Shown here: piece after piece, positions 3,787 through 49,618 of the stretch
How the letters are laid out: the number at the start of each line of letters is the position of its first letter
How positions within the stretch are numbered: the stretch's first letter is position 1
Source: a virus
Taxonomy: Duplodnaviria; Heunggongvirae; Uroviricota; Caudoviricetes
DNA length: 64,000 nucleotides
Virus record (IMG/VR): IMGVR_UViG_3300028534_000019
Coordinates: 31,091-95,090 of that record
Strand: one strand, 5' to 3'
Made by a program: the position numbers and the translations under genes
Notes under the pieces: model-generated
Told to the model about the DNA's origin: nothing
Database searches by the model: none
What the model saw: only the letters and a program-made list of their open reading frames with translations

Positions 3787-3826
3787 ATTACATTCCTTAT
3801 TTTAAAAATATTTATAAAGGTTATTT

Positions 3827-4873
3827 ATGGCTATTATAGAACCATTAGAACAAAAATACTTCTTACTAGAAACCTCATCTAAAGACATAGGATACATTAA
3901 AAGTGATGATATATCTAAATCTTGTGATATATGTAATGAGGGTTCATCTTATGGTAGAAAACACCGACTTCATTTATACACTAAACCTACATATGATACA
4001 CCATCAATAGCGTGTTTTAATTGTGGTTATAAAGGTAATATGTATAGTTATCTTAGAGATTACCATCCTACTTTATTTGACCAATATAAAAAAGAAAAAA
4101 TGGGTAGTACCTTTAAAGAGTTAAAATTATCAAAAAATAAAAATAAAAACTCTAATAATGAAACAACAGAAGATATAAATTTAGATAATATTTTTAGTTC
4201 ACACAAAACAAAACACACACCAATATTAGGCGATTTACCAAAAAGTTTTAAGCCTTTATTAGAATTTGAAGAACCTATAAAATACTTAAAGAATAGAAAA
4301 ATAGAAAACTATGATAGATGGTATTTTTCACCAAAAGATAATAATATTGTATTTAATGGTGCTGAGGTAAGATTAAGTGAATATATTATTATACCATTCT
4401 ATAAAGAAGATAAAATATATGGTTTTCAAGCATTATCATACAAACAAAAAAGATTTTTTGTATTTTTATTAAAAGGTAATGATAGTTGGAAAGTTGAAAA
4501 TTGGTTTAATATAGATAGAGAGAAAAATATATATGTTTTTGAATCTGTTTATGATAGACTTTCATCAGGTTTAGATAATACTATTTCCCAAATGGGTGCT
4601 AGTTTATCAGTTGAAAGAATAGAAGAATTAAATAAAAATAAGCTAGTTTTTTGTTTGGATAATCAAAATATTGATGAAGCATCACAAAGAGAGTCTTTAA
4701 AATATGCTGAGAAAGGTTATAATGTTTTTATTTGGCCGACTAAGATACCAAAAAAATTTAAAGATACAAATGATTTACTAAAGGGTGGTGTACCAAAAGA
4801 AAAGATTAAAGAGATTATTGAAAATAATACCTTTAGTGGTACAGAAGCAATTTTGAGATTAAAAATGATATAA
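3827..4873 (+). CDS. 61: DNA primase (T4 gp61-like; zinc ribbon plus TOPRIM)
   Basis: CDICNEGSSYGRKHRLHLY...CFNCGYKGNMYSYLRDYHPTLFDQY parallels the T4 gp61 zinc-ribbon region as I recall it. The C-terminal part has acidic TOPRIM-like stretches (VFESVYD, CLDNQNIDEA). Confidence 0.8.
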   Translation: MAIIEPLEQKYFLLETSSKDIGYIKSDDISKSCDICNEGSSYGRKHRLHLYTKPTYDTPSIACFNCGYKGNMYSYLRDYHPTLFDQYKKEKMGSTFKELKLSKNKNKNSNNETTEDINLDNIFSSHKTKHTPILGDLPKSFKPLLEFEEPIKYLKNRKIENYDRWYFSPKDNNIVFNGAEVRLSEYIIIPFYKEDKIYGFQALSYKQKRFFVFLLKGNDSWKVENWFNIDREKNIYVFESVYDRLSSGLDNTISQMGASLSVERIEELNKNKLVFCLDNQNIDEASQRESLKYAEKGYNVFIWPTKIPKKFKDTNDLLKGGVPKEKIKEIIENNTFSGTEAILRLKMI

Positions 4874-4883
4874 AGGAATAATA

Positions 4884-5633
4884 ATGTATATACCAAGAAG
4901 AGAATTTGATGATGAACCAAAAATAATTATTTTTAGTGGTGCTGGATTGGATGCCCCATCAGGATTAAAAACTTTTAGGGGTTCTGATGGTTTATGGGAT
5001 AGCCACAAAATACAAGATATTTGTACTGAAAGTACTTGGAAACAAAATTTTGAAGAAGTTCATAATTTTTATAATGGTTTAAGAAATAAATTAGAAAAAG
5101 CACAACCAAATAAAGCACATTTAAAAATAAAAGAATTATATGAAAAGTACCCTGATAGTGTTCTAAATATTACAATGAATATATCAGACTTTTTTGAAAG
5201 GTTAGAAGTTCCAGTTCTTCATATTCACGGAGAACTTAAAAAAATGGAATGTTATGCTTGTGGTACTAAATGGGATATTGGGTATAAGCAGTGGGATATT
5301 GAAAAAGATAGGTGTCCTAAATGCAATAGTAGAAAAGGTGTGAAACCATCTATTGTATTTTTTGGTGGTCAAGCACCTATGTATAGCTACTTGTGGCGTG
5401 CTTTTGAGCATACTATGAATAAAGATACTATTGTGATTGTTATTGGTACTCAGGGTAATGTAGTGAATGTAGAAGAGAATTTAATAGGTACTCCTTGTAA
5501 GAAAATTCTTTGTAATATGGAAGCATCAGCAGATATTAATGTAAAAAAATGTGGTTTTGATAAGGTGTACTATGAAAGTATAGAAACAGCAATAGACAAA
5601 ATTATGGATGATATTGAAGAATGGAAAAAATAA
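4884..5633 (+). CDS. Sir2-family NAD-dependent deacylase (CobB-like sirtuin)
   Basis: FSGAGLDAPSGLKTFRG (GAGxS...FR), VLHIHG (catalytic His), Zn site CYAC...CPKC, and PSIVFFGG. Confidence 0.8.
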   Translation: MYIPRREFDDEPKIIIFSGAGLDAPSGLKTFRGSDGLWDSHKIQDICTESTWKQNFEEVHNFYNGLRNKLEKAQPNKAHLKIKELYEKYPDSVLNITMNISDFFERLEVPVLHIHGELKKMECYACGTKWDIGYKQWDIEKDRCPKCNSRKGVKPSIVFFGGQAPMYSYLWRAFEHTMNKDTIVIVIGTQGNVVNVEENLIGTPCKKILCNMEASADINVKKCGFDKVYYESIETAIDKIMDDIEEWKK

Positions 5634-6165: not shown

Positions 6166-6639
6166 ATGAAAAAAGAATTAAAAATAGATATATTAGATAA
6201 TCTACAAAGAAATAGTGTTTGTGTTATTTTTAAACCAAGTGATAGTGTTTCACATATACTTATTTTGGAAGAATTAGTAAATAGAGTAGTATCAAGTGAA
6301 GTGATATTAAAAAGAGATACACTTGAGTATCTTAGAGATTCAGAAATAGAAATATATCCATTAGTTTATATGTCAAAAAATGATTTTGATGAATTACCTC
6401 AAAATGTCAAAGCAAGAGTTAGTTGTGTTGATGGTGAGATGTTATTTGAAAGTGTAGAAGATGATAGACAATTATCTAAAACAACCTTTTCTATACAAAT
6501 AGAAGATAAAGAATATACAAAAGATGAACTTTTAAAAGAAGTTGTTATGAGAATGAGTAATTTAGAAGATGGTACTTATGCTAGTACACCTGATGATTAT
6601 GATGACTTTTATAGTTCTTACAGTTTTAAAAAGATTTAA
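6166..6639 (+). CDS. Hypothetical acidic protein
   Basis: 157-codon ORF with AAGGAAAAGG upstream. Confidence 0.6.
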   Translation: MKKELKIDILDNLQRNSVCVIFKPSDSVSHILILEELVNRVVSSEVILKRDTLEYLRDSEIEIYPLVYMSKNDFDELPQNVKARVSCVDGEMLFESVEDDRQLSKTTFSIQIEDKEYTKDELLKEVVMRMSNLEDGTYASTPDDYDDFYSSYSFKKI

Positions 6640-6640
6640 T

Positions 6641-6708
6641 TTTTAAGTTTCATTTAAGTTTAATATGTTATAATTTTACATATCAAAAGACAAAAAGGAT
6701 TTAAAATG
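6641..6708 (+). repeat. 68-bp promoter/leader cassette, copy A (67/68 identical to 36837-36904)
   Basis: TTTTAAGTTTCATTTAAGTTTAATATGTTATAATTTTACATATCAAAAGACAAAAAGGATTTAAAATG. Contains TTAAGT (6654), TGT-TATAAT (6666-6674), an RBS and the ATG. Confidence 0.85.
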
Positions 6709-6954
6709 TCACAAATTAATTTCAAAAAAGTTTCTTACTATGTAGTTTCAATTATGGTATTATTTTCTTTAATAGCAATATTATCAAAACCATCACAAAT
6801 TGAGATAGATGTAAAATCAGGTACTAAAACTCTAACTTGTGAATTTGCTGATGGATGGAGAGAAATAGAACCTGAAAAAGTTGTTGGGTTTAATGATGAA
6901 AATGGATATTGGACTTTTACAAATGGTTATGCTAAAAATTGTGAGGTTAGATAG
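6706..6954 (+). CDS. Small membrane-anchored protein
   Basis: N-terminal hydrophobic helix YYVVSIMVLFSLIAILS. Confidence 0.6.
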   Translation: MSQINFKKVSYYVVSIMVLFSLIAILSKPSQIEIDVKSGTKTLTCEFADGWREIEPEKVVGFNDENGYWTFTNGYAKNCEVR

Positions 6955-7157
6955 TGTTTGTTGATAAAATTTTAGAAAATGGTGTAGAGTGTGTTTTTAT
7001 TACACACTCCAACAAAATAAGAAAGGCATATAGATATAAAAATATTATTTGGAAAATATATGCTAGTGGTGGTTATTCTGAAGTTTTTGAAAGTGAAATT
7101 CAATTCTCAGGAACAAGAGAAGAAGCAAAACAGAAATATCCTGAATTATTTTTTTAA
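6954..7157 (+). CDS. Hypothetical protein with C-terminal YPELFF motif
   Basis: GTG start overlaps the previous stop. Ends ...EEAKQKYPELFF*. Confidence 0.55.
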   Translation: MFVDKILENGVECVFITHSNKIRKAYRYKNIIWKIYASGGYSEVFESEIQFSGTREEAKQKYPELFF

Positions 7158-7463: not shown

Positions 7464-8191
7464 ACTATATATCTATATTAGCTGGTGGTTCTTGTAAATT
7501 TAATTGTGAATTTTGTGTTGGTAATTCTATAAGAGAAAATATCACACCTCATTATAGTTCAAAAATCAAAGGTTTTTTAGAATGTTATGCTGATAGAACA
7601 CAATTACTTTCAGTTTCAGGTGATACTTCAGACCCATCATTAATAAGTGAAACAATATTTATTCCTGTTGAAGCAAAAGAGTATAATAAAGATATAAAAG
7701 TTAGCATACATACAAGGGATATATATTTTACTGAAAAAGCAATGGATTATGGTTATGATAAAATTGTTTTAAGTATTGATGAAACACTTTCAGAAAATGA
7801 TTATCAAACCTTAGTAAATTATTATTACCACTATGGTTATAATATTAGATTAAGTTTTGTTTTAACATCATCTAATTTTTGGATTATTGATGAATGGAAA
7901 AAAGATTTTCCAGCATTATTTGATATGGAATTAACAATAAGACCTGATGTATTTGAAAAAGATGAGGTTTTTAGAAAACATATTTTTTTAGAAACATTTC
8001 TTGGTATAGATGGAGATTGGCAAAATATAGAGCAATATAAAAATGAATATGGTGCTATTGTTTTAGAAAAGTACCCTAATGTTTGGTATTGGGATTATAA
8101 TGTTACTAATAAAAATCTTGATGTTTTATATCTTTTTAGTAATGGTGACATAAAAAATAATTGTAAGTGGGAAAATTTATATGAAAATTAG
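7457..8191 (+). CDS. Radical SAM superfamily protein
   Basis: CKFNCEFC gives the CxxxCxxC cluster near the N-terminus (ILAGGSCKFNCEFCVG), and LLSVSGDTSDPSL resembles the SAM-binding GGE-type strand. The subfamily is not assignable. Confidence 0.65.
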   Translation: MLDYISILAGGSCKFNCEFCVGNSIRENITPHYSSKIKGFLECYADRTQLLSVSGDTSDPSLISETIFIPVEAKEYNKDIKVSIHTRDIYFTEKAMDYGYDKIVLSIDETLSENDYQTLVNYYYHYGYNIRLSFVLTSSNFWIIDEWKKDFPALFDMELTIRPDVFEKDEVFRKHIFLETFLGIDGDWQNIEQYKNEYGAIVLEKYPNVWYWDYNVTNKNLDVLYLFSNGDIKNNCKWENLYEN

Positions 8192-8423
8192 ATTAATAGA
8201 TTATAAAGAAGAAAGTTTTGATTTTCCTTACCCACCAAATTATGGTATGGATTTAGCAAAAATAAAAATAATGGGTAGTACTTTAGATATAGATAAGAAA
8301 CTATCTAAACATCTTGCTGAGTATAATTATTTTATGTATAAGGGTATGAAGATATTTTTTGAAGATTTAAACAATGACTCAAAAAAGAAAATGTATTCAG
8401 AATACCCTGAATATTACTTTTAG
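8181..8423 (+). CDS. Hypothetical protein with C-terminal YPEYYF motif
   Basis: Ends ...KKMYSEYPEYYF*. Confidence 0.55.
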   Translation: MKIRLIDYKEESFDFPYPPNYGMDLAKIKIMGSTLDIDKKLSKHLAEYNYFMYKGMKIFFEDLNNDSKKKMYSEYPEYYF

Positions 8424-8795: not shown

Positions 8796-9316
8796 TGGTT
8801 TTAAATTTTTATGGCGGGCCGGGTATTGGTAAAAGTACAAAAGCATCAGAGTTATTTTTTAGATGTAAACAACAAAACTTACAGGTTGAATTAATACACG
8901 AGTTTGCTAAAGATATGGTTTATTCTCAATCTATGGAAATATTGAAAGACCAATATTATGTAGGTGCTAATCAACATCATAGGGTGTGGAGAGTTCATAA
9001 CTATTACTTACAACAAGGTTTTAAAGAGGATGAATTTCTTATAATAACTGATAGTCCTATTTTGTTGGGTGCGGCTTATACTGATGATGATAAATTAAGA
9101 GATTTTATTTTTGAAACTTCAGAAAGATATAATAATATTAATATTATGCTAACAAGAAAATTTAATTACCAAGAAGAGGGAAGAAACCAAGATTTAAAAG
9201 GTGCTATTGAGATTGATAAAAAAGTTTTAGATTTATTAAATAAAACTTCTTATATAGAAACAAATGATACAGATAAAATTTTATCTCTAATTAAGGAAAA
9301 AATGAGTACAATATAA
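8795..9316 (+). CDS. P-loop NTPase (kinase/ATPase-like)
   Basis: Walker A motif FYGGPGIGKST at the N-terminus, and IITDSP as a possible Walker B. Confidence 0.6.
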   Translation: MVLNFYGGPGIGKSTKASELFFRCKQQNLQVELIHEFAKDMVYSQSMEILKDQYYVGANQHHRVWRVHNYYLQQGFKEDEFLIITDSPILLGAAYTDDDKLRDFIFETSERYNNINIMLTRKFNYQEEGRNQDLKGAIEIDKKVLDLLNKTSYIETNDTDKILSLIKEKMSTI

Positions 9317-11741: not shown

Positions 11742-12089
11742 ATGCTTTATACTTACAGAATTAAAAAAATACACAAAATATATGATGGTGATACAATTAC
11801 AGCAGAACTTGATTTAGGATTTAAGATTTCATTTATTGAAAAGATTAGATTGTCTTTTATTGATGCTCCTGAAATAAGAGGGGAAGAAAGAGAAGAAGGA
11901 TTAAAATCAAGATTATGGTTAGTAGAACATTTAAACTCAGCTATATCTAAAGGTGATGATGTTTTTGTTAGAACAAATAAAGATAGCCAAGGTAAATATG
12001 GAAGATATTTAGGGGATATTATAATTAATGGGGAGTCACTTAATCTAAAGATGGTTGAAGAGGGTTATGCTGAACTTTATAAAAAGTAA
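11742..12089 (+). CDS. Staphylococcal-nuclease (SNase/thermonuclease)-like nuclease
   Basis: YDGDTIT, RLSFIDAPE, GKYGRYLGDI and MVEEGYAELY match SNase-fold signatures. Confidence 0.7.
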   Translation: MLYTYRIKKIHKIYDGDTITAELDLGFKISFIEKIRLSFIDAPEIRGEEREEGLKSRLWLVEHLNSAISKGDDVFVRTNKDSQGKYGRYLGDIIINGESLNLKMVEEGYAELYKK

Positions 12090-12099
12090 AGGTTTTATT

Positions 12100-13872
12100 A
12101 TGGAAGGAATATTTAATAAATTAAAAGAACATAATAAAGATGTTGTACTTAGTGATGAAGAGAAAAATAAAGTTTTAAGTGTTATAGATATAGAGAAAAA
12201 TAAAGAGGGTTTATATGTAGATGCCTTTGGTATGCCTATATCGCATAATGGGTTAAGAGATTTAAAAAAAGAGAAAACACAAATAAATCTTTCAGAAACA
12301 TTAATAAATGAAATTAAAACATCATATTTAGATTATTATTATTTTAGAGAAAATTATTGTAAAATTGTTACTAAAAAAGGTATTAAAAGACCTGAGCCAA
12401 GACCATACCAAAAAAGGTTAGAAGATGATTTAGTAACAGGTGAAGATGTTTTAGCATTTTGGCCGAGACAATCAGGAAAATCTGTAACTATTTCAACTTA
12501 TCTATTATGGAAAGCAATTACAACACCTAATATTAATATTGGTATAGCGGCAAATGTTCAAAAATTAGCTATGGAAGTATTAGACAAAATAAAAAATATA
12601 TTTTTGGAGTTACCTATTTGGATGAAGCCGGGTATAAAGGTTTGGAATAAAGGTTCTATTGAATTTGAAAATGGTACAAGAATTTTAACCTCAGCAACTA
12701 ATGGTGATGCTTTTAGGGGGTTTACTATTAATATATTATATGTTGATGAGGTTGCTTTTATTAGACATAGTGTGTGGGAAGAATTTGCTGATTCTGTTTT
12801 CCCTGCTCAAGAAGCACTTATGGAAAAACAAACTATTATGTCAAGTACGGCTGGTGGGCTTAATCATTGGTATCATTTAGTAGAGGGTGCTAGAAAGGGT
12901 AAAAATGGTTATAGAATAGCTGAAGCAAGTTGGAAAGAAGTTCCTAGATGGAAAAAAGATGGTACTCTTAAAACACCTGATGAATTTAAGGCTGAAATAA
13001 TAGCTAAAAATGGAGAGATGTTTTTCCAACAAAATTTTGGTAACTCTTTTTTAGGTAGTTCTAAAACTTTAATAGATTCACAAGCATTAAAAAATATTGA
13101 ACCTATGGATGATGATGAAATTTTGTTTGATAATGTTTTTAATGGACTAAGAATTTTTAAAGAGCCAAAACCTAATCATAATTATATAGTTACTTGTGAC
13201 CCCAAAAAAGAGGGTTTGGATAGTGCTGGATTACAAGTTGTTGATGTTACAAATTTACCTTTTGAACAAGTAGCATCAGCACAATTACACGAGAGTTATT
13301 TAACAATTCCTGGTAAATTAAATGATTTAGGGTTGTATTATAATAAGGCTATGATAGTATGTGAAAATAATGTAGCTGAGTCTATACCTAGTACTGTATA
13401 TTATAATTATGAATATGAGGGTGAAGTCTTTATAGAAAAAGATAGTAAGGGTCGCCCTAAAAAGGAAATGGGCATTAGGACAACTACCAAAACAAAAAGA
13501 TTAGGTTTAACTCTATTAAAGAAATTTGTAGAGAATGGAAACCTAATAATAAATGATACAAAAACATTAGATGAATTATTTAACTTCATTGAATATAAAG
13601 ATGGTATATATAAAGCAGAAGAGGGTTATCACGATGACCTTGTTATGTCATTAATGCTTGTTTTTGCTCCATTTTTAGATTTTAAAAACTTTGATGATTT
13701 TAGAGGTTTTGTTGATTATCTTGATAAAAAAGAAAAACAACAAGAAGAGAATGATAAAGAGATGGAAGAATTTATGGATTTAGGTTTTAGTTCTGATGAT
13801 GATTTGGAAGATGACGGGCCGTTTACTAAGGATATTTGGGGAAATAGAGATATGGTTGGTGGCTTCATATAA
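12100..13872 (+). CDS. 17: Terminase large subunit (T4 gp17-like)
   Basis: Walker A FWPRQSGKSVT. WNKGSIEFENGTRILTSATNGDAFRGFTINILYVDEVAFI parallels the T4 gp17 block, and the C-terminal nuclease region has YHDDLVMSL. The ATG at 12100 (after AAAGG) is preferred over 12055. Confidence 0.9.
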   Translation: MEGIFNKLKEHNKDVVLSDEEKNKVLSVIDIEKNKEGLYVDAFGMPISHNGLRDLKKEKTQINLSETLINEIKTSYLDYYYFRENYCKIVTKKGIKRPEPRPYQKRLEDDLVTGEDVLAFWPRQSGKSVTISTYLLWKAITTPNINIGIAANVQKLAMEVLDKIKNIFLELPIWMKPGIKVWNKGSIEFENGTRILTSATNGDAFRGFTINILYVDEVAFIRHSVWEEFADSVFPAQEALMEKQTIMSSTAGGLNHWYHLVEGARKGKNGYRIAEASWKEVPRWKKDGTLKTPDEFKAEIIAKNGEMFFQQNFGNSFLGSSKTLIDSQALKNIEPMDDDEILFDNVFNGLRIFKEPKPNHNYIVTCDPKKEGLDSAGLQVVDVTNLPFEQVASAQLHESYLTIPGKLNDLGLYYNKAMIVCENNVAESIPSTVYYNYEYEGEVFIEKDSKGRPKKEMGIRTTTKTKRLGLTLLKKFVENGNLIINDTKTLDELFNFIEYKDGIYKAEEGYHDDLVMSLMLVFAPFLDFKNFDDFRGFVDYLDKKEKQQEENDKEMEEFMDLGFSSDDDLEDDGPFTKDIWGNRDMVGGFI

Positions 13873-13925: not shown

Positions 13926-14552
13926 ATGAGAAAGAAATTTAATGAAGATAAGAACAAAACTTATGAGAGTAAAGAACACTCTTTACATAAAAAGAAGATT
14001 GTAAAAAATCAAGACTATACAAAATTTAGGTTTTTTATAGGAACTTTTGATAATCAAACACCTAAGTTTCATTTAATATTAAATGATTTATATGATTCTA
14101 ATGAAAAAGATGAATTAGAATTAAGAATTATGTCACCAGTTGGATTGGTTATTGAATGTCAGCAAGTTGTGAATATAATGAATAACAAATTTAATGGTAG
14201 AACAACAGCATATATTGAAAGCCACGCTAGTTCAGCAGGTGCTATTGTTTTTGCTAATGCTGATAAAAGAGTTATATATGAAAATTCAAGAATAATGTTT
14301 CACAACTATTCAGGTGGTTATGGTGGTAAATTTCAAGATATTAAAGATAGATTAGATTTTGATGAAAAACATATTATTTCTTTTTTGAGTGTTGCTAAAC
14401 AATTCTTAAATAAAAAAGAATGGAAACAAATGGTAAATGGAAAAAACTTTTGGTTTGATGCTTCTGATATGTTAAAAAGAAATATAGCAACTCATATCAT
14501 AGTAGATGGTAAAGAGATGACTAAGAAAGAATATAAAAAATATAAAAAATAA
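13926..14552 (+). CDS. ClpP-fold serine protease (S14-like)
   Basis: SHASSAGAIVF (catalytic Ser context), NSRIMFHNYSGG (His) and FWFDASDML (Asp region), in ClpP order. Carries an N-terminal basic extension of about 50 aa. Confidence 0.7.
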   Translation: MRKKFNEDKNKTYESKEHSLHKKKIVKNQDYTKFRFFIGTFDNQTPKFHLILNDLYDSNEKDELELRIMSPVGLVIECQQVVNIMNNKFNGRTTAYIESHASSAGAIVFANADKRVIYENSRIMFHNYSGGYGGKFQDIKDRLDFDEKHIISFLSVAKQFLNKKEWKQMVNGKNFWFDASDMLKRNIATHIIVDGKEMTKKEYKKYKK

Positions 14553-15816: not shown

Positions 15817-15838
15817 TTAAGCATATAGTAGCTATAAT
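15817..15838 (+). promoter_or_regulatory. Promoter candidate (TTAAGC-N10-TATAAT)
   Basis: TTAAGCATATAGTAGCTATAAT. The -10 element and leader are shared with 32565-32605. Confidence 0.5.
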
Positions 15839-15870
15839 ACTACATATAAAACATAAAAGGATTAGAAATG
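15830..15870 (+). repeat. 41-bp -10/leader cassette (40/41 identical to 32565-32605)
   Basis: AGCTATAATACTACATATAAAACATAAAAGGATTAGAAATG versus ...GGATTAAAAATG. Confidence 0.85.
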
Positions 15871-16601: not shown

Positions 16602-17051
16602 ATGATATATTCAAATAATAAAAAAGTAAAACACGACTATGAAATAATTGAAACATTTGAGGCAGGTGTTGTTTTGAGCGGTCCGCAAGTAAAATCAATT
16701 AGAAAAGGTTCTTTAAGCCTTAAAGGTTCTTATGTTAGTCTTGATGATGGTGTTTTATCATTAAAACAATACTCACTTGCTAGACCTGATTATTTGGATG
16801 CTTTTAGTTCTTTTGATGATAAACCAATAAAATTTTTACTCAAAAAAAGAGAGATTAAAAAATTACAAAAAAAGATTCAAGAAAAAGGTTTAACATTATC
16901 TATAACAAAAGTTTATCAACCTGAAAATACTAGATTTATTAAGGCTGAGTTAGTTCTTGTGAGAGGTAAAAAACTATATGATAAAAGAGAAGATTTAAAA
17001 AAGAAAACACAAGAAATGGATATGAAAAAGGCTATAAAATATGATAGATAA
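16602..17051 (+). CDS. smpB: SmpB (tmRNA-binding protein)
   Basis: NNKKVKHDYEIIETFEAGVVLSGPQVKSIRKGSLSLKGSYV matches the conserved SmpB N-terminal block (NKKA.HDY.I...EAGI.L.G.EVKS.R). Size is 149 aa with a basic C-terminal tail. Confidence 0.9.
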   Translation: MIYSNNKKVKHDYEIIETFEAGVVLSGPQVKSIRKGSLSLKGSYVSLDDGVLSLKQYSLARPDYLDAFSSFDDKPIKFLLKKREIKKLQKKIQEKGLTLSITKVYQPENTRFIKAELVLVRGKKLYDKREDLKKKTQEMDMKKAIKYDR

Positions 17052-18056: not shown

Positions 18057-18569
18057 ATGGTAGAAGAAAATAATTTTAGAGAAACAAAAACACATATTTA
18101 TTTTTGGGGTAGTATCTATTCTCAATGGTACACTTCAAAAAACCAATTCAAAGAAGATGGATTTATTTTTCAAAATGCTGAACAGTATATGATGATGAAA
18201 AAAGCAGAACTTTTTAAAGATTATGATGTATTAGAAAAAATGAAACAAACAAGTAATCCAAAGGTATTAAAAAAATTGGGTAGAGAAATTAAAGGTTTTG
18301 ATGAAGATATTTGGAATTTTAATAAAATGGATATTGTTGAAAGAGGGAATTTTTTAAAGTTCTCTCAAAATCCTAAGTTATTAGAAAAACTTATAGCACA
18401 CAAAAATAAACATATAGTAGAAGCATCACCTTATGATAAGATTTGGGGTATTGGGCTTCATTGGTCAGATGATAAGGTATTAAATGAAAGTACTTGGAAT
18501 GGTGAAAATCTTTTAGGTAAATGTATTATGTCAGCAAGAGATAAAATTTTAAATCCAAAATCTATATAA
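18057..18569 (+). CDS. NADAR (YbiA/DUF1768) family protein
   Basis: IYFWGSIYSQWY, FQNAEQYMMMKKAELF, GNFLKFSQNPKL and IVEASPYDKIWGIG are the family signatures as I recall them. Confidence 0.8.
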   Translation: MVEENNFRETKTHIYFWGSIYSQWYTSKNQFKEDGFIFQNAEQYMMMKKAELFKDYDVLEKMKQTSNPKVLKKLGREIKGFDEDIWNFNKMDIVERGNFLKFSQNPKLLEKLIAHKNKHIVEASPYDKIWGIGLHWSDDKVLNESTWNGENLLGKCIMSARDKILNPKSI

Positions 18570-18639: not shown

Positions 18640-20490
18640 ATGGCAGTTATTGGTATAGATTTAGGAACGACAAATAGTGCTGTTTCAGTTTATGAAGTAG
18701 GGGAATTTAAAATTATTCCTAATGCTGAGGGTAAAAATACAACACCTAGTATTGTAGCATTTACAGATAAAGGGGATGTATTAGTAGGGGAATCAGCAAA
18801 AAGACAAGCAGTCACAAACCCTGAAAAAACTATTGAAGCAATTAAAAGAATTATGGGTATGCAATTTAATGAACCTAGATGTAAAGAGGCTCAAGAAAAA
18901 GTACAATATAAAATTGTAGATAAAAATGGTTTGGCCGCTGTTGATGTTGATGGTAAGATTTATACACCACAAGAAATTTCAGCTAAAATCCTTACAAAAC
19001 TAAAAGATGATGCAGAAGCATTTATTGGTAAAGAAGTTACAGATGCTGTAATTACAGTTCCAGCATACTTTAATGATGCTCAGAGAAAGGCGACACAAGA
19101 GGCAGGCGTTATTGCAGGGCTTAATGTACTAAGAATTATTAATGAACCTACTTCGGCCGCTCTTGCTTATGGTTTGGACAAAAAAGGTGAGGAAAATATT
19201 CTTGTTTATGATTTTGGTGGTGGTACTTTTGATGTATCTGTATTAGAAATTGGAGATGGTACTTTTGAAGTTCTTTCAACTGATGGTAATGCTTTCTTAG
19301 GTGGTAAAGACTTTGACCAAATTTTAGTTAATTATATTGCTGAATATTTTAAAGAGAAACAGGGTGTTGATTTAAGAAATGATAAAATGGCACTTCAAAG
19401 ATTATATGATGCTTCAGAAAATGCTAAAAAAGAGTTATCAAGTGTTGTAGAAACTGAAATTAACTTACCATTTATTACTATGACAGAAGCCGGCCCGCAG
19501 CATCTTGTTTTAAAAATTTCAAGAGGTAAATTTGAGGGGTTAGTACAAAATCTTGTAGATGAAACTATTGAACATATTACAACAGCATTACAAGACGCTG
19601 GTTTAAGTGTAGATGATATTAGTGAATTGATTATGGTTGGTGGCTCAACAAGAATACCTTTAGTACAAGAGGCAGTTTCAAAGTATTTTAAAGGTAAAAC
19701 TCTTAATAAATCTGTTAATCCTGATGAAGTTGTAGCCGCTGGTGCTTCAATTCAAGGTGGTGTATTAACAGGAGATGTAAAAGATGTTCTTCTTCTTGAT
19801 GTTACACCATTATCACTTGGTATTGAAACTATGGGTGGTATTGCTACTAAAATCATCCCAAAAGGTACAACTATTCCTGTTAAAAAATCAGAAATCTTTA
19901 GTACAGCAGTTGATAATCAACCAGCAGTTAGTATTGTAGTAGTACAAGGTGAAGCAAAATTAGCAGAAGATAATAAATCTTTAGGACAATTTAATCTTGA
20001 GGGTATAACACCAGCTAAAAAAGGTGTACCACAAATTGAAGTTAATTTTGATGTTGATTCTAATGGTGTTTTGAGTGTATCAGCTATTGATAAAGGAACA
20101 GGTAAAGAACAGAAAATAACAATTACAGGTTCGACAGGTTTAAGTGAAGAAGAAATTAGAAAGATGATTGATGATGCTGAAAAACAAAATCAAGAAAAGG
20201 CTGAAAAAATTAAAGCAATTGAAGCAAAAAATGAATTGGATGCTACTCTTTCAAGAATTAAAAACTTTAATGATGAAGAAAAAAATGAAGTGCTATCAGC
20301 TAAAATTTCTGATGTTGAAGAATATGTAAAAGAAGATAGAACAGCAGAAGAAATTAGAAAAATTAGAGATGAACTTGAAGAAGTTTATTTAAAAGCATTT
20401 GAAGAGAAATCAAAAAGAAATGAAGGTGCTGAGGTAAAAGAAAGCACTGAAAATAATGATGATGTTATTGATGCTGAAATTGAAGAATAA
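18640..20490 (+). CDS. dnaK: Hsp70 chaperone DnaK (canonical bacterial type)
   Basis: [69 protein letters not shown], and an acidic tail [10 protein letters not shown]. Confidence 0.95.
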
Positions 20491-20501: not shown

Positions 20502-21305
20502 TTGAAAAAATTATATAAAATTCTTGAAATTGAAGAAACTTCTACAACAGTAGAAATAAAAAAAGCATATAGAAAATTAGCTAAAAAATACCACCCTGAT
20601 GTTTGTAAAGAAGAGGGTGGTGAAGATAAGTTTAAAGAAATTAATAGAGCATATGAAGTTCTAAGCAATCCACAAGAAAAACAAAAGTATGATAGATTTG
20701 GTGATGAAATGTATGAAAAAATGGGGTCAGGTGGTGGAAGACCTAATCCAAATGCTGATGAGTTTGCAGAAGCAATGGCATCATTTTTCAACCAAAAGGG
20801 AAATCCCCGACAAGGTAATCCTTTTGGTATGGGTGGTAATCCTTTTATTCATACAACAATTCAAGCATATATTTCGATAGAAGATTTATTTAAAGGTACT
20901 TCTATACAATTACAAGATGGTACTAAAGTAAAAATACCACCTAGAACAATACCGGGTAGTAGGGTAAGAGTTAAAGGCAAAGGTATGTCAGATGGTAAAA
21001 ATACAGGAGATTTATTTATTATCATAACACCAAAAAATAATGATAAAGAATTTGTTGAGAATGATACTATTATAAAGATTATCAAAATTGATTTAGTTAG
21101 TATGATTTTTGGAAATGAAATAAAATATAATCATTATGGTAAAGATTTAATTGTTACTGTTCCAAAAAATACAAAGCCCGGTGACTTTGTACAAATTCCC
21201 AATCAGGGCTTAGGTACTCAGGGTTCATTAATTTTACATTTAGATTTAGAATTACCAAAAGCAGAAGATTTAGATGAAGAAAAAGTAAAAGAATTATTTA
21301 ATTAA
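20502..21305 (+). CDS. J-domain co-chaperone (DnaJ/CbpA-like, no zinc-finger domain)
   Basis: TTG start after AAGAGG. J domain is YKILEIEETSTTVEIKKAYRKLAKKYHPDV with HPD, followed by a G/F-rich linker and a DnaJ C-terminal beta domain. No CxxCxGxG repeats. Confidence 0.85.
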   Translation: MKKLYKILEIEETSTTVEIKKAYRKLAKKYHPDVCKEEGGEDKFKEINRAYEVLSNPQEKQKYDRFGDEMYEKMGSGGGRPNPNADEFAEAMASFFNQKGNPRQGNPFGMGGNPFIHTTIQAYISIEDLFKGTSIQLQDGTKVKIPPRTIPGSRVRVKGKGMSDGKNTGDLFIIITPKNNDKEFVENDTIIKIIKIDLVSMIFGNEIKYNHYGKDLIVTVPKNTKPGDFVQIPNQGLGTQGSLILHLDLELPKAEDLDEEKVKELFN

Positions 21306-21364: not shown

Positions 21365-21769
21365 ATGGCAAAAGAAAAAAGTTATGGGGTTGCTCCTTAT
21401 TTAATTATAAATGGGCAATATTATATATTGTTAAATAAAACATCAGAACATAGTAGATACAATTTCTTCAAAGGTAAAATTGAAGAGGGTGAAACTATTG
21501 CTCAATGTGCCAAAAGAGAATTTTGGGAAGAAACAGGTGTAGAAGTTGATGAGAGAGATTTTGAAGAATATTTTTTCCAAAAGTCTTCTAAAAAAGATGT
21601 TGGTATTTTTTTAATTAATTGGTCTAAATATATTAATAAAAAATTTCAATTTCAAAAAAGAGAAATTTGGGCTTCTTATTGGGTAGAGGTTGATGATGTT
21701 CAAACATCCAAAAACCAAAAAGAAATTGTTGATTCTATTGAATCTTTTTTTAAAAATAAATCTGAGTAA
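21365..21769 (+). CDS. Nudix hydrolase
   Basis: Complete Nudix box GKIEEGETIAQCAKREFWEETGV (Gx5Ex7REUxEExGU). Confidence 0.85.
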   Translation: MAKEKSYGVAPYLIINGQYYILLNKTSEHSRYNFFKGKIEEGETIAQCAKREFWEETGVEVDERDFEEYFFQKSSKKDVGIFLINWSKYINKKFQFQKREIWASYWVEVDDVQTSKNQKEIVDSIESFFKNKSE

Positions 21770-24380: not shown

Positions 24381-24447
24381 TTTTAATTTTTAATTTTCTT
24401 TTAATATTAAAATGCTATAATTACATAATTAAAAAAGAAGGATATTT

Positions 24448-25548
24448 ATGTTAGTTCAAAATAAAAAAGTTCCAAAAGAAACATTAGAGTTATTGGACTC
24501 TAAAATAGAAGAATTTGAAAAAAATACAAATTCAACTGTTTTATATATTACAATTACAGGTTCTGTTCTTTATGGTACTGATAATGAAAATAGTGATTTA
24601 GATTTTAAAGGTATTTTTATGCCTAATCTAAAAGAAGTGCTTATTGGTAATACACCTAGTGCTTTTGTTTTTAATTCAAATACAAAAGATAAAAACTCTT
24701 CTGATGATATTGATTTAACATTACACCCTGTAAATGACTTCTTTAATCATCTTAGAAAATCTGAAACAGGTGCTGTTGATTTACTTTTTAGTATGTTTAG
24801 AGAAGATACTATTGTTTTTGATGATGGTATTTTCACGAACTTTATGAAGAAAAATTATCAAAAGTTTAGAAATTCTAATATGAAAAGTTTTATCGGTTAT
24901 GCTGTTGGTCAAACTAAAAAATTTGGGATTAAAGGTGCTAGATATGAAGAGTTAGATGTTTTTTATAAAGATTGTGTTAATTATTTTAATCTTGCTCCAA
25001 AAGAAAATAAATTAGGTGAATATTGGGATTTTCTTGAACTAAAAGCCCAAGGTAAAAAATATATTAAGTTTACAAAAGCAGAAGGTGCTAGAAGAAATGA
25101 TGGTAGTAGTAATATCATTGATTATATTTCTGTTCTTGGTAAACTATATCATAAAGATGTAACAGTAGGTTATTTTTTAGAAAGAGTTTCTAAATTTTAT
25201 AATCAATTTGGTAATAGAACTAAAACAGTAGCTAAAACTGAATCAAAAACAGATTGGAAAGCAATGAGCCACGCCCTTAGAGTAGCTATGGAAGTTAAAG
25301 AGTTACTTCAATTTGGTTTTATTAAATTTCCATTGACTTATGCTGATGAGATTAAAGAAGTTAAATTTGGTAACAGAGAAGAACAAGAAACATTAGATAA
25401 AATTAGAGATGTATTGGGTGAAGTTGATACAATATTAGAAAATATTGATAAAGATAACTTTCCTTGTGAAATGAGTGAAGAATTACTTAAAAAATTAAAA
25501 TGGGAAGTAATTCTTCTATATAAAGAGTTTTTAGATTTAGGTTTTTAA
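24448..25548 (+). CDS. Nucleotidyltransferase (RlaP/PF10127-like, Pol-beta superfamily)
   Basis: ITITGSVLYGTDNENSDLDFKGIF gives the GS...G...D-x-D NTase signature of the RNA-ligase-associated family. Confidence 0.65.
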   Translation: MLVQNKKVPKETLELLDSKIEEFEKNTNSTVLYITITGSVLYGTDNENSDLDFKGIFMPNLKEVLIGNTPSAFVFNSNTKDKNSSDDIDLTLHPVNDFFNHLRKSETGAVDLLFSMFREDTIVFDDGIFTNFMKKNYQKFRNSNMKSFIGYAVGQTKKFGIKGARYEELDVFYKDCVNYFNLAPKENKLGEYWDFLELKAQGKKYIKFTKAEGARRNDGSSNIIDYISVLGKLYHKDVTVGYFLERVSKFYNQFGNRTKTVAKTESKTDWKAMSHALRVAMEVKELLQFGFIKFPLTYADEIKEVKFGNREEQETLDKIRDVLGEVDTILENIDKDNFPCEMSEELLKKLKWEVILLYKEFLDLGF

Positions 25549-30669: not shown

Positions 30670-30909
30670 ATGGAAATACAATCTTTATTATATAAATGTG
30701 ATAAATGTGATGCTATTATAGATAATCCAATTTCTAAAGAATATAATATTCATTTTTGTAACAAATGTGTTTTAGAGTTTATTCATAATAAGATGGTAAT
30801 TGAATTTAATGAACCTCAAAAAATTCATAACATAAATGAAAATCATAAAGATGAACATATAACGACAAAAAATATAGATTTTTGTGAAGTTAGTATTAAG
30901 GATTTATAA
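30670..30909 (+). CDS. Small zinc-ribbon protein
   Basis: CDKCDAII...CNKC four-Cys pattern. Confidence 0.5.
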   Translation: MEIQSLLYKCDKCDAIIDNPISKEYNIHFCNKCVLEFIHNKMVIEFNEPQKIHNINENHKDEHITTKNIDFCEVSIKDL

Positions 30910-31217
30910 TGTCAAAGCAATGGCTTAGTGAATTAATAGAACAGCCATATGAATGGTGTATTGAAACTGTTACAAAAGAGCCTGAATTACTAAAAAATAT
31001 AAAAGTACAAACACAAGAACTTTGTGAAATAGCATTTTATGAAGATTATAAAACAGCAAAATATATACATCAAGAATTTAGATTTAATGAGAGAATTTTA
31101 GCTATTGCTCGACAGCATAGTTTATTAAATAAAAGCATACCACAAGATATGCTTGAAAAAATAAATGAATATCCATATAATTACTTTGAAAAGAAATATC
31201 CTGAAATCTTTTTCTAA
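30909..31217 (+). CDS. Hypothetical protein with tandem C-terminal motif (EYPYNYF then KYPEIFF)
   Basis: Ends ...KINEYPYNYFEKKYPEIFF*. Confidence 0.55.
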   Translation: MSKQWLSELIEQPYEWCIETVTKEPELLKNIKVQTQELCEIAFYEDYKTAKYIHQEFRFNERILAIARQHSLLNKSIPQDMLEKINEYPYNYFEKKYPEIFF

Positions 31218-32552: not shown

Positions 32553-32573
32553 TTAAGAATATTCAGCTATAAT
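32553..32573 (+). promoter_or_regulatory. Promoter candidate (TTAAGA-N9-TATAAT)
   Basis: TTAAGAATATTCAGCTATAAT. The -10 element and leader are shared with 15830-15870. Confidence 0.5.
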
Positions 32574-32602
32574 ACTACATATAAAACATAAAAGGATTAA
32601 AA

Positions 32603-32914
32603 ATGGAAGAGTTTTTAAATAAGTTTGAAAAAATAGTTGATAGTTTCCCTTTAAACCCATCATACTTTTTAGTATTGGATATAGCAAATGATGTTTCAAA
32701 TGCTATGTTAGAAGATGATAAAGAAGTTTGTAGAAATATGTTATTAAAATATATTAAAATTGAATGTAGCATAGAAACATATAATGAAAACAGAAAAGAA
32801 ATTGATAAATTAATTTCAAAAATTAAAGAAACATTGATTACACTTTGTTTAACATTTTCAAGAGATGATAGTTTTATAATGGTTGATGATAATTTAATAG
32901 ATTTAGAATTATGA
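32603..32914 (+). CDS. Hypothetical protein
   Basis: 103-codon ORF. Confidence 0.55.
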   Translation: MEEFLNKFEKIVDSFPLNPSYFLVLDIANDVSNAMLEDDKEVCRNMLLKYIKIECSIETYNENRKEIDKLISKIKETLITLCLTFSRDDSFIMVDDNLIDLEL

Positions 32915-33183
32915 TTGAAAATTATTTTGATTGGTTTTTAAATAATTCTGAAGAATTAAGTGATTTTAGGAATGATTTTTTATATACGATAATAACTATT
33001 GAAACAGCACCAAAAATGGAACTTAGTTTATTCTATGTTTTTAAAGATTTAGGTATTAATCTTGATATATCTGATATTAGTGTTAAGGTTAATAGTACAA
33101 GTTCTAGTTTAAGTGTTTCAGATAATTTAAAAGAAAAACTAAAACTCTATATAAAAGAAAAATATCCTGAAATTATATTCTAA
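32911..33183 (+). CDS. Hypothetical protein with C-terminal YPEIIF motif
   Basis: Ends ...KLYIKEKYPEIIF*. Confidence 0.55.
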   Translation: MIENYFDWFLNNSEELSDFRNDFLYTIITIETAPKMELSLFYVFKDLGINLDISDISVKVNSTSSSLSVSDNLKEKLKLYIKEKYPEIIF

Positions 33184-34592: not shown

Positions 34593-34802
34593 ATGTATGC
34601 TTTAATAGGTTATAATGATGAGTATTATTACATTCAAATTTTTTCAGAAACTGATGTTGTGTATGGTTATATAATATATAACTTTAGTGGGGATAAAAGT
34701 TTAGTAGTTGATAATTTCCCAATTAGTTCAGTATTAAAAAGGTTTGAAACATTATATACTATTGAAGAAATACAAAATTTATACCCTGAATTAAAGTTCT
34801 AA
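34593..34802 (+). CDS. Hypothetical protein with C-terminal YPELKF motif
   Basis: Ends ...IEEIQNLYPELKF*. Confidence 0.5.
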   Translation: MYALIGYNDEYYYIQIFSETDVVYGYIIYNFSGDKSLVVDNFPISSVLKRFETLYTIEEIQNLYPELKF

Positions 34803-47964: not shown

Positions 47965-48654
47965 ATGGCTTTAGTATATAAAGAAGAATATAAAAATATA
48001 GCTAAAATAGGTGGTAAAGAAATTCATTTTAAACCGTGGAATACAAAAAATGAAAAAGAATTTTTAATTGCTGTTGAATCTGATGAAGATATTACAGATT
48101 CAATGCTATATGAATTATTAGTTAAACCTTGTATAAAAGAACAAGATATTGTACTTGATGAATACGAACAAAAATTACTTATGATTGAAATGAGGAAAAA
48201 ATCTATTGGTAGTACTTTCCCATTGAGTTACAAATGTTCTAATTGTAAAAATCTTAATGAGATTGAAGTAGAATTAGATGATATTATTAAATATAATGAA
48301 CCAAAATATGATGAGGTTACCGTAGAAGATATAACTATATCTTTTGGAGTTCCAAGAACTGAAAAATTAATCAAAAGACTTGATGAAGTTGATACAAAAG
48401 TAGAAAAAACTTTTTATAATTTTTTAATACATATAAACTATATTATTATTGATGGTGTTAAAGAAGATACATTTAGTTTTGAGGAGTTAAAAGATTATAT
48501 TGAAAGTTTACCAACATCTATTTTTGATGAATTTTATGAAAAATATAGTGCTATGAGTCCTAATTTAAGGTTTGAGTTAGACCAATATTGTATGTTTTGT
48601 AATGAGAAAAATCAGATTAATCTTGAAGGAATCCCAAATTTTTTATGGGCATAA
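47965..48654 (+). CDS. 26: Baseplate hub assembly protein (T4 gp26-like) with zinc ribbon, paralogue 1
   Basis: HFKPWNTKNEKEFL...LLMIEMRKKSIGS...YKCSNCKN...CMFCNEKN, ending IPNFLWA. This resembles the T4_baseplate (gp26) pattern from memory. Confidence 0.5.
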   Translation: MALVYKEEYKNIAKIGGKEIHFKPWNTKNEKEFLIAVESDEDITDSMLYELLVKPCIKEQDIVLDEYEQKLLMIEMRKKSIGSTFPLSYKCSNCKNLNEIEVELDDIIKYNEPKYDEVTVEDITISFGVPRTEKLIKRLDEVDTKVEKTFYNFLIHINYIIIDGVKEDTFSFEELKDYIESLPTSIFDEFYEKYSAMSPNLRFELDQYCMFCNEKNQINLEGIPNFLWA

Positions 48655-48819: not shown

Positions 48820-48822
48820 AAT

Positions 48823-48844: not shown

Positions 48845-48916
48845 TATTTAATTTAAAGAATAAAGAACCATTATGTCATTAAAGACTCAATGATAAATAT
48901 AAACAAAAGGAAAATT

Positions 48917-49618
48917 ATGGCTTTACAATATAAGCAATCGTATAATAATATCTCTAAAATAGGAGATAAAGAAATTCATTTTAGACCTTGGAGTGCTAAA
49001 GATGAAAGACTTTATTTGAAGTTAATTGAAAAAACTGAAAATATAACAGAAGAAGATTTTTATAACACTTTAATAAAACCTTGTATAGAAGAAAAAGATT
49101 TAGTTTTAAGTCAAGCAGAACAAAAGAAACTATTACTAGATATTAGAATTAAATCAATTTCTGAATTTATTGAAGATGATATTGTATGTGAAGAATGTGA
49201 AGAAATCACTAAAATCAAAGTTAAAATAGAAGACTGTTTAACTTATATACCAAATACATTTAAACCAATTAAAATAGATGATATAGAGATTGAATTTGAT
49301 AAACCAAAAACAATGAAAGATTATTTTAATGTAACTGAGGGTGAAAGTGTCGTAGATTATATCTATGATATGTTTTTGCTACATATAAGTAAAATAAAAA
49401 TGGTTAGTGAAGATGGTGAAAAAGTTTATGATGATATTTCTATTCAAGATAAAGAAGATTTTATAAATTCATTACCTAGTAAGATGTTTGATGAATTTTT
49501 TGAAAAATTTCAAGAAATGCTAGATGAAACAAAAATAACCTATAAGTTTACTTGTCCTAAATGTAAACACAAACAAGAAACAGACTACAATTTTATACCT
49601 AACCTTCTTTGGGTATAA
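48917..49618 (+). CDS. 26: gp26-like hub assembly protein, paralogue 2
   Basis: MALQYKQSYNNISKIGDKEIHFRPWSAKDERLYL... is alignable to 47965-48654. Cys pairs CEECEE / CPKCKH, ending IPNLLWV. The ATG at 48917 (RBS AAAGGA) is preferred to 48890. Confidence 0.5.
   Translation: MALQYKQSYNNISKIGDKEIHFRPWSAKDERLYLKLIEKTENITEEDFYNTLIKPCIEEKDLVLSQAEQKKLLLDIRIKSISEFIEDDIVCEECEEITKIKVKIEDCLTYIPNTFKPIKIDDIEIEFDKPKTMKDYFNVTEGESVVDYIYDMFLLHISKIKMVSEDGEKVYDDISIQDKEDFINSLPSKMFDEFFEKFQEMLDETKITYKFTCPKCKHKQETDYNFIPNLLWV

Follow-up and report, generated by a model that had tools for sequence, protein, structure and literature searches.

A duplicated promoter-leader-start cassette in a T4-like phage

In a 64,000-nt stretch of an uncultured T4-like phage (IMG/VR record IMGVR_UViG_3300028534_000019, positions 31,091 to 95,090; hereafter the window), a 69-bp intergenic element is present in two almost identical copies in front of unrelated genes. 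This element is probably a pre-late promoter joined to a translation-initiation unit, whose near-identity would result from recombination or gene conversion among copies together with constraint on a core. We propose that it could act as a self-contained expression cassette of a T4-like myovirus, occupying everything between one gene's stop codon and the ATG of the gene that follows. A strong pre-late (early or middle) promoter would be joined to a short, structure-free, A/C-rich 5' leader that has a strong Shine-Dalgarno (SD) sequence at a fixed distance from the ATG. The same architecture would serve at least 18 genes of the window, and the family would contain discrete, near-identical "alleles": type 1, with two copies in the window and four on co-occurring contigs, and type 2, with two copies in the window and one elsewhere. 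Homologous recombination or gene conversion, or else a recent re-use during the shuffling of ORFans, may keep the copies alike, and purifying selection would prevent change in the core, which reaches from the proximal box to the SD. The genes behind such copies, although they are unrelated ORFans, should be expressed together with equal timing and strength, following the logic of promoter-early stem-loop (PeSL) cassettes without the stem-loop.

Pairwise comparison within the 64-kb window revealed that positions 6640-6708 (copy A) and 36836-36904 (copy B, offset +30196), both on the plus strand, are identical at 68 of 69 positions. The match of 67 out of 68 positions reported for 6641-6708 and 36837-36904 in a first-pass annotation, made from the DNA letters alone, lies within this longer match and was reproduced. 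The lone mismatch (T6660 against C36856) affects the base directly 3' of the proximal TTAAGT box. No comparable match arose in 100 dinucleotide-preserving shuffles, and no third copy with up to three mismatches was found in the window. The homology has sharp edges: it starts just past the stop codons of two unrelated upstream open reading frames (ORFs) and its 3' limit coincides with the ATG of two downstream ORFs that are likewise unrelated. The elements of the two copies, whose positions were read off the sequence and whose transcription start is a predicted one, are as follows.

6640-6708, plus strand: type-1 cassette copy A, with two boxes, extended -10, leader, SD and ATG
6642-6648, plus strand: copy A, distal TTTAAGT box
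6653-6659, plus strand: copy A, proximal TTTAAGT box
6666-6667 and 6669-6674, plus strand: copy A, TG and TATAAT of the extended -10 (TGnTATAAT)
6678-6683, plus strand: copy A, ACATAT, separated from the -10 by TTT; predicted start region
running to 6693, plus strand: copy A, A/C-rich leader stretch CAAAAGACAAA
6694-6699, plus strand: copy A, SD AAAGGA, followed by a 6-nt spacer
6706-6708, plus strand: copy A, ATG
36836-36904, plus strand: type-1 cassette copy B
36838-36844 and 36849-36855, plus strand: copy B, boxes
36862-36863 and 36865-36870, plus strand: copy B, TG and TATAAT
36890-36895, plus strand: copy B, SD
36902-36904, plus strand: copy B, ATG

The description as a promoter-leader-start cassette thus held, with an extended -10 (TGnTATAAT), TTAAGT boxes, a short 5' untranslated region, an SD and an ATG all present. 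The two TTTAAGT boxes of copy A are 11 nt apart and in phase, the proximal box lying 9 nt and the distal box 20 nt upstream of the extended -10.

Both copies are also present outside the IMG/VR record. The independent ENA assembly ERZ27262685 (contig k141_205395, k=141) is 99.75-99.95% identical to the window and covers both copies with the same cassette sequences and unique flanks. Logan contigs of SRR8439170 (k=31) start or stop inside both copies, as is expected of a true repeat. Single-nucleotide polymorphisms between the strain variants do not cluster at the cassettes.

The first-pass annotation had suggested that a shared RNA structure in the leader might account for the identity. This can be excluded. 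The predicted 28-nt leader has a minimum free energy (MFE) of 0 kcal/mol and no secondary structure, and adding 30 nt of either coding region does not make it fold better than shuffled sequences. The cassette as a whole (MFE -6.9 kcal/mol) is equally unremarkable, with z = -0.11. No Rfam match was found at the cassette, and a scan for terminator-like hairpins returned zero sites in either locus. A structured cis-regulatory RNA such as a riboswitch, leader or thermosensor is therefore rejected.

The cassette belongs to a promoter family

A listing of intergenic TATAAT sites yielded at least 18 promoters in the window that share one layout: TTAAGy-N9-10-TATAAT, in most cases followed by N3-ACATAT, then an A-rich stretch, AAAGGA, N5-7 and ATG. 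Relative to TATAAT, a T at -15 and an A at -13 are invariant in 18/18 promoters, which gives TTAAGy-N10-TATAAT. The strict pattern TTAAG[TC]-N9-10-TATAAT occurs nine times on the plus strand of the window and not once on the minus strand, against an expectation of about 0.2. Consequently, the focal pair is not the unique two-copy duplication that it first seemed to be, as it sits within this family and has at least four further near-identical copies on co-occurring contigs (see below).

Sharing an architecture does not imply sharing a sequence. The mean pairwise identity within the family is 0.49±0.11 in the 30 nt upstream of the -10 and 0.66±0.09 in the leader, compared with 0.93 and 1.00 for the focal pair. 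Since the family background lies far below the identity of the focal pair, promoter function does not need such identity. Judged from these alignments, the likeness of the focal copies would clearly be kept by something beyond convergence on a consensus. The earlier proposal that the identity implies copying, gene conversion or selection on the leader therefore stands in a modified form, as copying or gene conversion plus some constraint. A second pair, termed type 2 (TATAAT at 15833 and 32568), shows identities of 0.47 upstream and 0.97 in the leader; its copies share only the stretch from the -10 to the ATG, and the upstream 30 nt are at background level. Further members of the family are listed here.

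15830-15870, plus strand: type-2 cassette copy 1 (AGCTATAATACTACATATAAAACATAAAAGGATTAGAAATG)
32565-32605, plus strand: type-2 cassette copy 2, 41/42 identical to copy 1
24381-24450, plus strand: diverged family member, 62% identical to copy A over 81 nt, preceding a 366-aa gene
TATAAT at 242, 6131, 13892, 18596, 21329, 26629, 28906, 31246, 33211, 35196, 39394, 42373 and 48838: other promoters of the same architecture

A separate class is formed by the T4 late-promoter consensus TATAAATA, which is located 24-49 nt before nine other genes of the window (motifs at 9312, 10383, 11716, 14575, 42924, 42946, 47940, 49655 and 53948). These genes include a SNase-like gene just upstream of the terminase gene, a neck gene, a baseplate gene and a 1419-aa gene. 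The existence of this late class suggests that the TATAAT cassettes constitute a pre-late class.

Four promoters of the window, here called class A (AAAAATTAAGTA-N10-TATAAT), are spaced with striking regularity. Their TTAAGT boxes start at 1140, 13876, 26613 and 39378, which corresponds to distances of 12,736, 12,737 and 12,765 nt (simulated p ~5e-6 for such regularity). A further site, at 48822, is off the period, and no members occur at the next expected positions, ~52.1 kb and 64.85 kb. The genes behind the four promoters are unrelated (gp32, ClpP-like, ParM/ALP-like and tmRNA).

Further copies, chimeras and concerted evolution

Exact-pattern scans of IMG/VR and JGI metagenomes revealed additional copies on contigs (numbered with an L below) from one sample, Ga0256843 (IMG 3300028534). 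Three Ga0256843 contigs carry type-1 copies with 94-98.5% identity, each before another unrelated ORF.

L001/L010 at 9082: extra type-1 copy
L003/L004 at 197: extra type-1 copy, same site as the end of L005
L002/L009 at 5555/7809: extra type-1 copy
L005 at 7891: extra type-1 copy with different edges

In addition, a type-2 cassette at L004:1809 is identical over 39 nt to the window copy at 32568.

From the distal box to the ATG, only five columns vary among the five full type-1 copies, namely one between the two boxes, one directly 3' of the proximal box, one at the n of TGn and two between the SD and the ATG. The boxes, the -10, the start region, the leader and the SD are free of variation. 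All five substitutions miss the 21-nt start-plus-leader stretch; by our estimate, which assumes a uniform distribution over the 37 positions outside recognised motifs, this has a probability of ~0.015. This is suggestive, although the events are few.

Other copies are mosaic. Two chimeras, at L001:7577 and L005:6522, consist of the type-1 leader CAAAAGACAAAAAGGATTTA behind another promoter half (TTTAAGTTTATTATACTATAATTACAGTAA); the one at L005:6522 also has an extra CAAAA-type expansion. At L005:7917 the type-1 core is kept and the distal and SD-ATG edges differ, and the type-2 leaders are located behind unrelated upstream halves. The more distant relatives L006, L008 and L019 keep the promoter core, but not the leader. 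L007, a distant relative whose proteins are 38-54% identical to those of the window, carries at several sites a homogenised version of its own, ATGTTATAATATTACATATAAAGGATAtAAAATG. Cassettes that are uniform within a lineage, different between lineages and mosaic in some copies, and nearly identical at positions that are variable in the family, point to concerted evolution, in which recombination or gene conversion would act in addition to functional constraint. T4-type recombination requires only small patches of homology of less than 50 bp (Arbiol et al., PMC2839356), so that 69 bp would be sufficient.

The number of copies per genome depends on where the additional contigs belong. Apart from the cassettes, a comparison of the fetched contig parts with the window gave neither a blastn match nor a protein match at E<=1e-5. 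They carry portal, S77 prohead protease, scaffold and gp23 genes (Pfam), as well as ORFs that we take, from sequence reading alone, to encode a ligase, a Dda-like helicase and an endonuclease VII-like protein. Hence, they hold T4 core genes that are absent from the window and none of those present there. An identical portal protein is also found in ERZ27262685, the sample that holds the window phage. The next-best homologs are distant (59% identity for the portal, 47-48% for the DUF2201 gene of the window), and a second, closer T4-like phage was not seen in these searches. Because of the co-occurrence in ERZ27262685 and the complementary sets of T4 core genes, the most parsimonious explanation is that the contigs probably derive from other parts of the same genome, or from a co-occurring sister, with assemblies broken at the repeats. 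If they belong to the same genome, it probably carries at least six type-1 copies.

Several points weigh against a pre-late cassette homogenised by recombination. Recombination among the copies is read from mosaic patterns, and no recombinant junction or indel polymorphism was seen at the cassettes, where the strain variants are identical. The absence of variable columns (0/5) in the 21-nt start-plus-leader could reflect selection specific to the leader. We found no overlap that physically links the window to the cassette-bearing contigs, which bears on their placement in one genome. The assignment to early or middle expression is drawn solely from the contrast with the TATAAATA late class. 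Finally, the position of the proximal TTAAGT, 9-10 nt from the -10, is non-canonical for a -35 element, and a phage-encoded factor may be the reader.

Alternative explanations for the near-identity

The invariant leader raises the possibility that the leader ACAUAUCAAAAGACAAAAAGGAUUUAAA itself is the conserved unit, serving as the site of a phage translational regulator or RNase, akin to the logic of RegA or RegB, or as a translation enhancer. The genes behind it would form a post-transcriptional regulon and the identity would stem from purifying selection instead of recombination. Leaders are indeed conserved independently of the promoter half, as seen in the type-2 pair (0.47 upstream, 0.97 in the leader) and in the type-1 leader behind a different promoter in L001:7577 and L005:6522. 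The pattern of substitutions described above, which spares the start-plus-leader stretch, fits as well, and a fully unstructured leader is what one would expect of a binding site for a single-strand binding protein or the ribosome. However, no RNA structure or Rfam family was found, and neither the scanned window proteins nor the precomputed Pfam matches of the matching loci include a RegA- or RegB-like family. L006, L007, L008, L019 and phage CP220 keep the promoter core and not the leader, although a universal site would be conserved, and other leaders serve most of the remaining family promoters. We therefore consider this explanation rather unlikely.

Alternatively, the cassette might be horizontally mobile between co-infecting phages, and the Ga0256843 contigs would stem from another T4-like phage that recently exchanged it with or without an ORFan. 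In agreement with this idea, cassettes are all that the fetched contig parts share with the window at the DNA level, and mini-circles formed by PeSLs have been proposed as vectors of such transfer (PMC2839356). Yet the T4 core genes on the contigs (portal, S77 protease, scaffold, gp23 and ligase) are exactly the ones missing from the window, the portal is identical in the ENA sample of the window phage, and, with next-best homologs as distant as reported above, no second closer T4-like phage is apparent. An exchange between phages is thus quite improbable.

A recent neutral duplication of one intergenic segment with plain promoter function and no special maintenance would readily explain why the window copies differ at a single position, and no relative at intermediate distance was found that could show long-term conservation. 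Nevertheless, a neutral segmental duplication would not be expected to be bounded exactly by a stop codon and an ATG each time, in six independent gene contexts. The substitutions are confined to positions expected to be neutral, the second cassette type behaves alike and chimeric copies exist, all of which makes this scenario very improbable. Lastly, an assembly or scaffolding artefact that copied one intergenic region elsewhere is of negligible probability and was ruled out by the independent k=141 assembly across both copies, together with the Logan contig ends inside them and the same cassette in JGI contigs.

According to the first-pass annotation, the direct repeat would be able to drive a deletion of the interval from 6.7 to 36.9 kb. 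A crossover between the window copies is formally possible and would delete 30.2 kb. The interval contains the terminase, the prohead ClpP-like protease, a T4 neck protein, SmpB, Hsp70/DnaJ, ThyX and an AAA_5/DUF2201 pair, and the product would be non-viable. Consequently, the repeat would be tolerated and is not a useful deletion driver.

Polymerase recognition and host

An E. coli-type consensus scan (TTGACA-N17-TATAAT) did not pick up the cassette, in which TTTAAGT boxes take the place of the -35 element. The sigma-70 (RpoD) consensus of Campylobacter jejuni comprises TTTAAGTnTT at -35, TTTTTTG at -16 and TATAAT at -10 (Wosten et al. 1998, cited in PMC3824568). The distal TTTAAGTTTC at 6642-6651, with a 20-nt spacer to TATAAT, fits such a Campylobacter-type -35 with a TG-extended -10. 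Cassette and C. jejuni promoters have in common the TTTAAGT box, the TG-extended -10, the perfect TATAAT and an AAGGA-type SD. They differ in that the distal box is 20 nt from the -10, compared with 22 nt in the consensus construct (PMC3824568), in the missing T-run at -16, and in that the box universal to the family is the proximal one, 9-10 nt from the -10 and one helical turn nearer. Since the boxes match TTTAAGTnTT, the host RNA polymerase is most likely the reader, with or without a phage factor, and recognition by host RpoD would be the simplest model.

The host is probably a member of the vent Campylobacterota. This is suggested by the GC content of the window (25-27%), by the nearest relatives of its terminase, which are from T4-like Vibrio phages (41%) and CP220-group Campylobacter phages (39%), by the cassette matches and the promoter layout of CP220, by the 3' end of the transfer-messenger RNA (tmRNA) and by the origin of the sample. 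The latter, Ga0256843, is one epibiont metagenome of East Pacific Rise vent polychaetes (PMC8549365). The 3' 32-mer of the tmRNA is present exactly in two Candidatus Thiovulum metagenome-assembled genomes (MAGs) and one Campylobacterales MAG, and also in a Mycoplasmopsis genome and a Patescibacteria MAG; the Thiovulum tmRNA genes also match the start of the tag-coding region. When both loci were compared with GenBank phages by blastn, no match was obtained, and the cassette alone gave only weak matches (E>=0.02), which were enriched for Campylobacter phages. The promoter pattern had no match in 185,579 reference genomes, and the cassette is thus not a copied host promoter or prophage element present in that collection. 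Queries of IMG/VR with the terminase, the metallophosphatase and the 244-aa gene yielded no orthologous loci at intermediate distance, and the relatives L021-L024, found via an upstream gene, reach only the region preceding the window.

In CP220, the pattern TTAAGy-N9-10-TATAAT is present eight times on the coding strand in 50 kb, where 0.2 are expected (~40-fold enrichment). The CP220 group (Eucampyvirinae) resembles the window phage in this pattern and in the short A-rich leader, AAGGAG and ATG, whereas the leader sequences differ and the terminases are only ~39% identical. CP220 (L027, NC_027997) also has a near-identical promoter-leader pair of its own, AAAAAACTTTAAGTTATTTTATTATATAATACTATAAA(A)GGAG..., at 12620 and 12929, 309 nt apart and in front of two different genes. 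In the literature we found no description of TTAAGy-N9-10-TATAAT as a promoter class. Duplicated promoters were remarked upon in Campylobacter phage IBB_35, and the promoter screen of that genome analysis used only the E. coli TTGACA consensus (PMC3322345).

Comparison with known cassettes and promoters

The closest known counterparts are the PeSLs of the T4-type phages RB49/phi1, PST and nt-1, which extend from stop codon to ATG, recombine with each other through crossovers between -10 and SD, and have been seen in mini-circles (PMC2839356; PMC4122927). The cassette described here is likewise located in a T4-like myovirus, spans the gap from stop codon to ATG before unrelated ORFans, combines an AT-rich region with a predicted sigma-70-type promoter and an SD, is present in several copies and is long enough for T4-type homologous recombination. 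Its chimeric copies also show apparent crossovers between the -10 and the SD. In contrast, PeSLs possess a stable stem-loop (often GGGG...CCCC) that acts as terminator or attenuator, which is missing here. Furthermore, the PeSL promoter is of the TTGACA type and not of the Campylobacter type with TTTAAGT boxes and extended -10. Unlike in PeSLs, the leader is conserved too, and the window copies lie 30 kb apart around essential genes instead of being clustered in a hyperplastic region. PeSL recombination has been demonstrated experimentally, whereas here it is deduced from sequence mosaics. PeSLs also tend to mark places where close relatives differ by insertions, deletions or replacements; at the present cassettes, the strain variants are identical. 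As the MFE and terminator scans revealed no stem-loop, we do not file the cassette as a true PeSL, although it may work like a PeSL without insulator.

T4 middle promoters carry a MotA box, (a/t)(a/t)(a/t)TGCTTtA, centred at -30 and 12±1 bp from the -10. The cassette resembles them in being part of a T4-like phage and in having a conserved box ~10-12 bp upstream of the -10 that replaces the -35, but the box is TTAAGT and not TGCTTtA, and a MotA-dependent middle promoter was rejected on this ground. A T4 late promoter, which has TATAAATA at -10 and lacks an upstream element, was likewise rejected, the cassette having TATAAT and TATAAATA fronting other genes. A non-exhaustive Pfam scan of window proteins detected no RegA-, RegB-, MotA- or AsiA-like family. 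Morons and integron gene cassettes are also single genes that carry or receive their own expression signals; unlike these, the present system has no terminator, attC-like site or integrase, and the repeated regulatory element itself is the likely substrate of recombination.

Neighbouring genes and gene content of the phage

The cassettes are flanked by the following ORFs.

6166-6639, plus strand: upstream of copy A, 157 aa, ORFan, stop codon directly abutting the cassette
6706-6954, plus strand: behind copy A, 82 aa with one hydrophobic segment, ORFan
36486-36833, plus strand: upstream of copy B, 115 aa with a hydrophobic N-terminus, ORFan
36902-37321, plus strand: behind copy B, 139 aa, ORFan

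Neither the upstream nor the downstream protein pair gave a BLASTP alignment at E<=100, in line with the first-pass description of the downstream proteins as unrelated. All eight proteins that flank type-1 copies (8/8) lack a Pfam or PHROG match.

Several small ORFs, otherwise dissimilar (15-39% identity), share the C-terminal motif (K)YPE(L/I/Y/R)(F/K/I/Y)F directly before the stop codon. They are located at 6954-7157, 8181-8423, 30909-31217, 32911-33183 and 34593-34802 of the window and at 3824-4264 and 7276-7554 of L001, several of them directly 5' of a promoter cassette. The motif could be a common C-terminal interaction or degradation motif, or a conserved edge of recombination.

The T4-like genes of the window comprise gp32, RNase H, terminase (12067-13872), neck, gp15, gp19, gp5, gp25 and gp6. 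A full-length tmRNA gene (39452-39772, plus strand; Rfam 90.8 bits; tag ANNTDYTGNTVLSA) and a SmpB gene (16602-17051, plus strand; Pfam E=1.7e-38) give the phage a complete trans-translation pair. Further genes encode the ClpP-like protease (13926-14552), two Hsp70/DnaK-like proteins (18640-20490 and 39844-41706) and a DnaJ C-domain protein (20709-21305). A comparison of the window with the ENA strain variant gave 37 differences, 30 of them clustered in 250 nt (41451-41701) at the 3' end of the second Hsp70 gene; this patch, just before the end of the ENA contig, looks hypervariable or recombined. SIR2-family, NADAR and NUDIX genes (4884-5633, 18057-18569 and 21365-21769) constitute an NAD/ADP-ribose metabolism set that is possibly relevant to counter-defence, and the distant relative L019 carries an Anti-Pycsar Apyc1-like gene. 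Tandem paralogous T4_baseplate genes (47965-48654 and 48890-49618) include a 158-nt DNA repeat with 73% identity, and the 1419-aa ORF has in-frame tandem repeats of 33 nt and 18 nt (50535-50699 and 52847-52990).

Over 1.26 kb (compared with L015, 1-1263), L022 and L023, from the sister vent samples Ga0256828 and Ga0256825, match the window phage with 97.5% identity. The homology then falls abruptly, with a gene replacement at a gene boundary without a promoter cassette. This abrupt replacement indicates that the lineage is mosaic.

Implications for T4-like phages from vents

It is established that large lytic phages carry repeated consensus promoters and that these can serve as recombination linkers. 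New are the lineage, the Campylobacter-type geometry of the boxes, the missing stem-loop and the leaders that are conserved like alleles. The phage is an uncultured T4-like one from a vent, and for the two proteins that were searched the closest homologs show no more than 47-59% identity. The cassettes extend the regulatory-cassette mode of T4-type evolution, described for enterobacterial, Yersinia and Vibrio T4-likes, to a deep-branching, uncultured vent lineage.

A further, unlikely idea is that the type-1 and type-2 leaders are selected cis-modules, addressed by a phage translational or RNA-processing factor or acting as enhancers of ribosome recruitment, that define takeover regulons of ORFans and serve as a PeSL-like linker for moving them. 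If true, ORFans of T4-like phages in deep-sea vent Campylobacterota would be moved by a linker without stem-loop, both inside a phage genome and from one phage to another.

In practical terms, the cassettes exceed common assembly k-mers and visibly fragment assemblies of the phage. The consensus of promoter and translation-initiation region (TTAAGy-N9-10-TGnTATAAT, N3-ACATAT, A-rich leader, AAAGGA-N6-ATG) could improve the annotation of Campylobacterota phages, and the motif could supply strong, portable expression signals for genetic tools in Campylobacterota.

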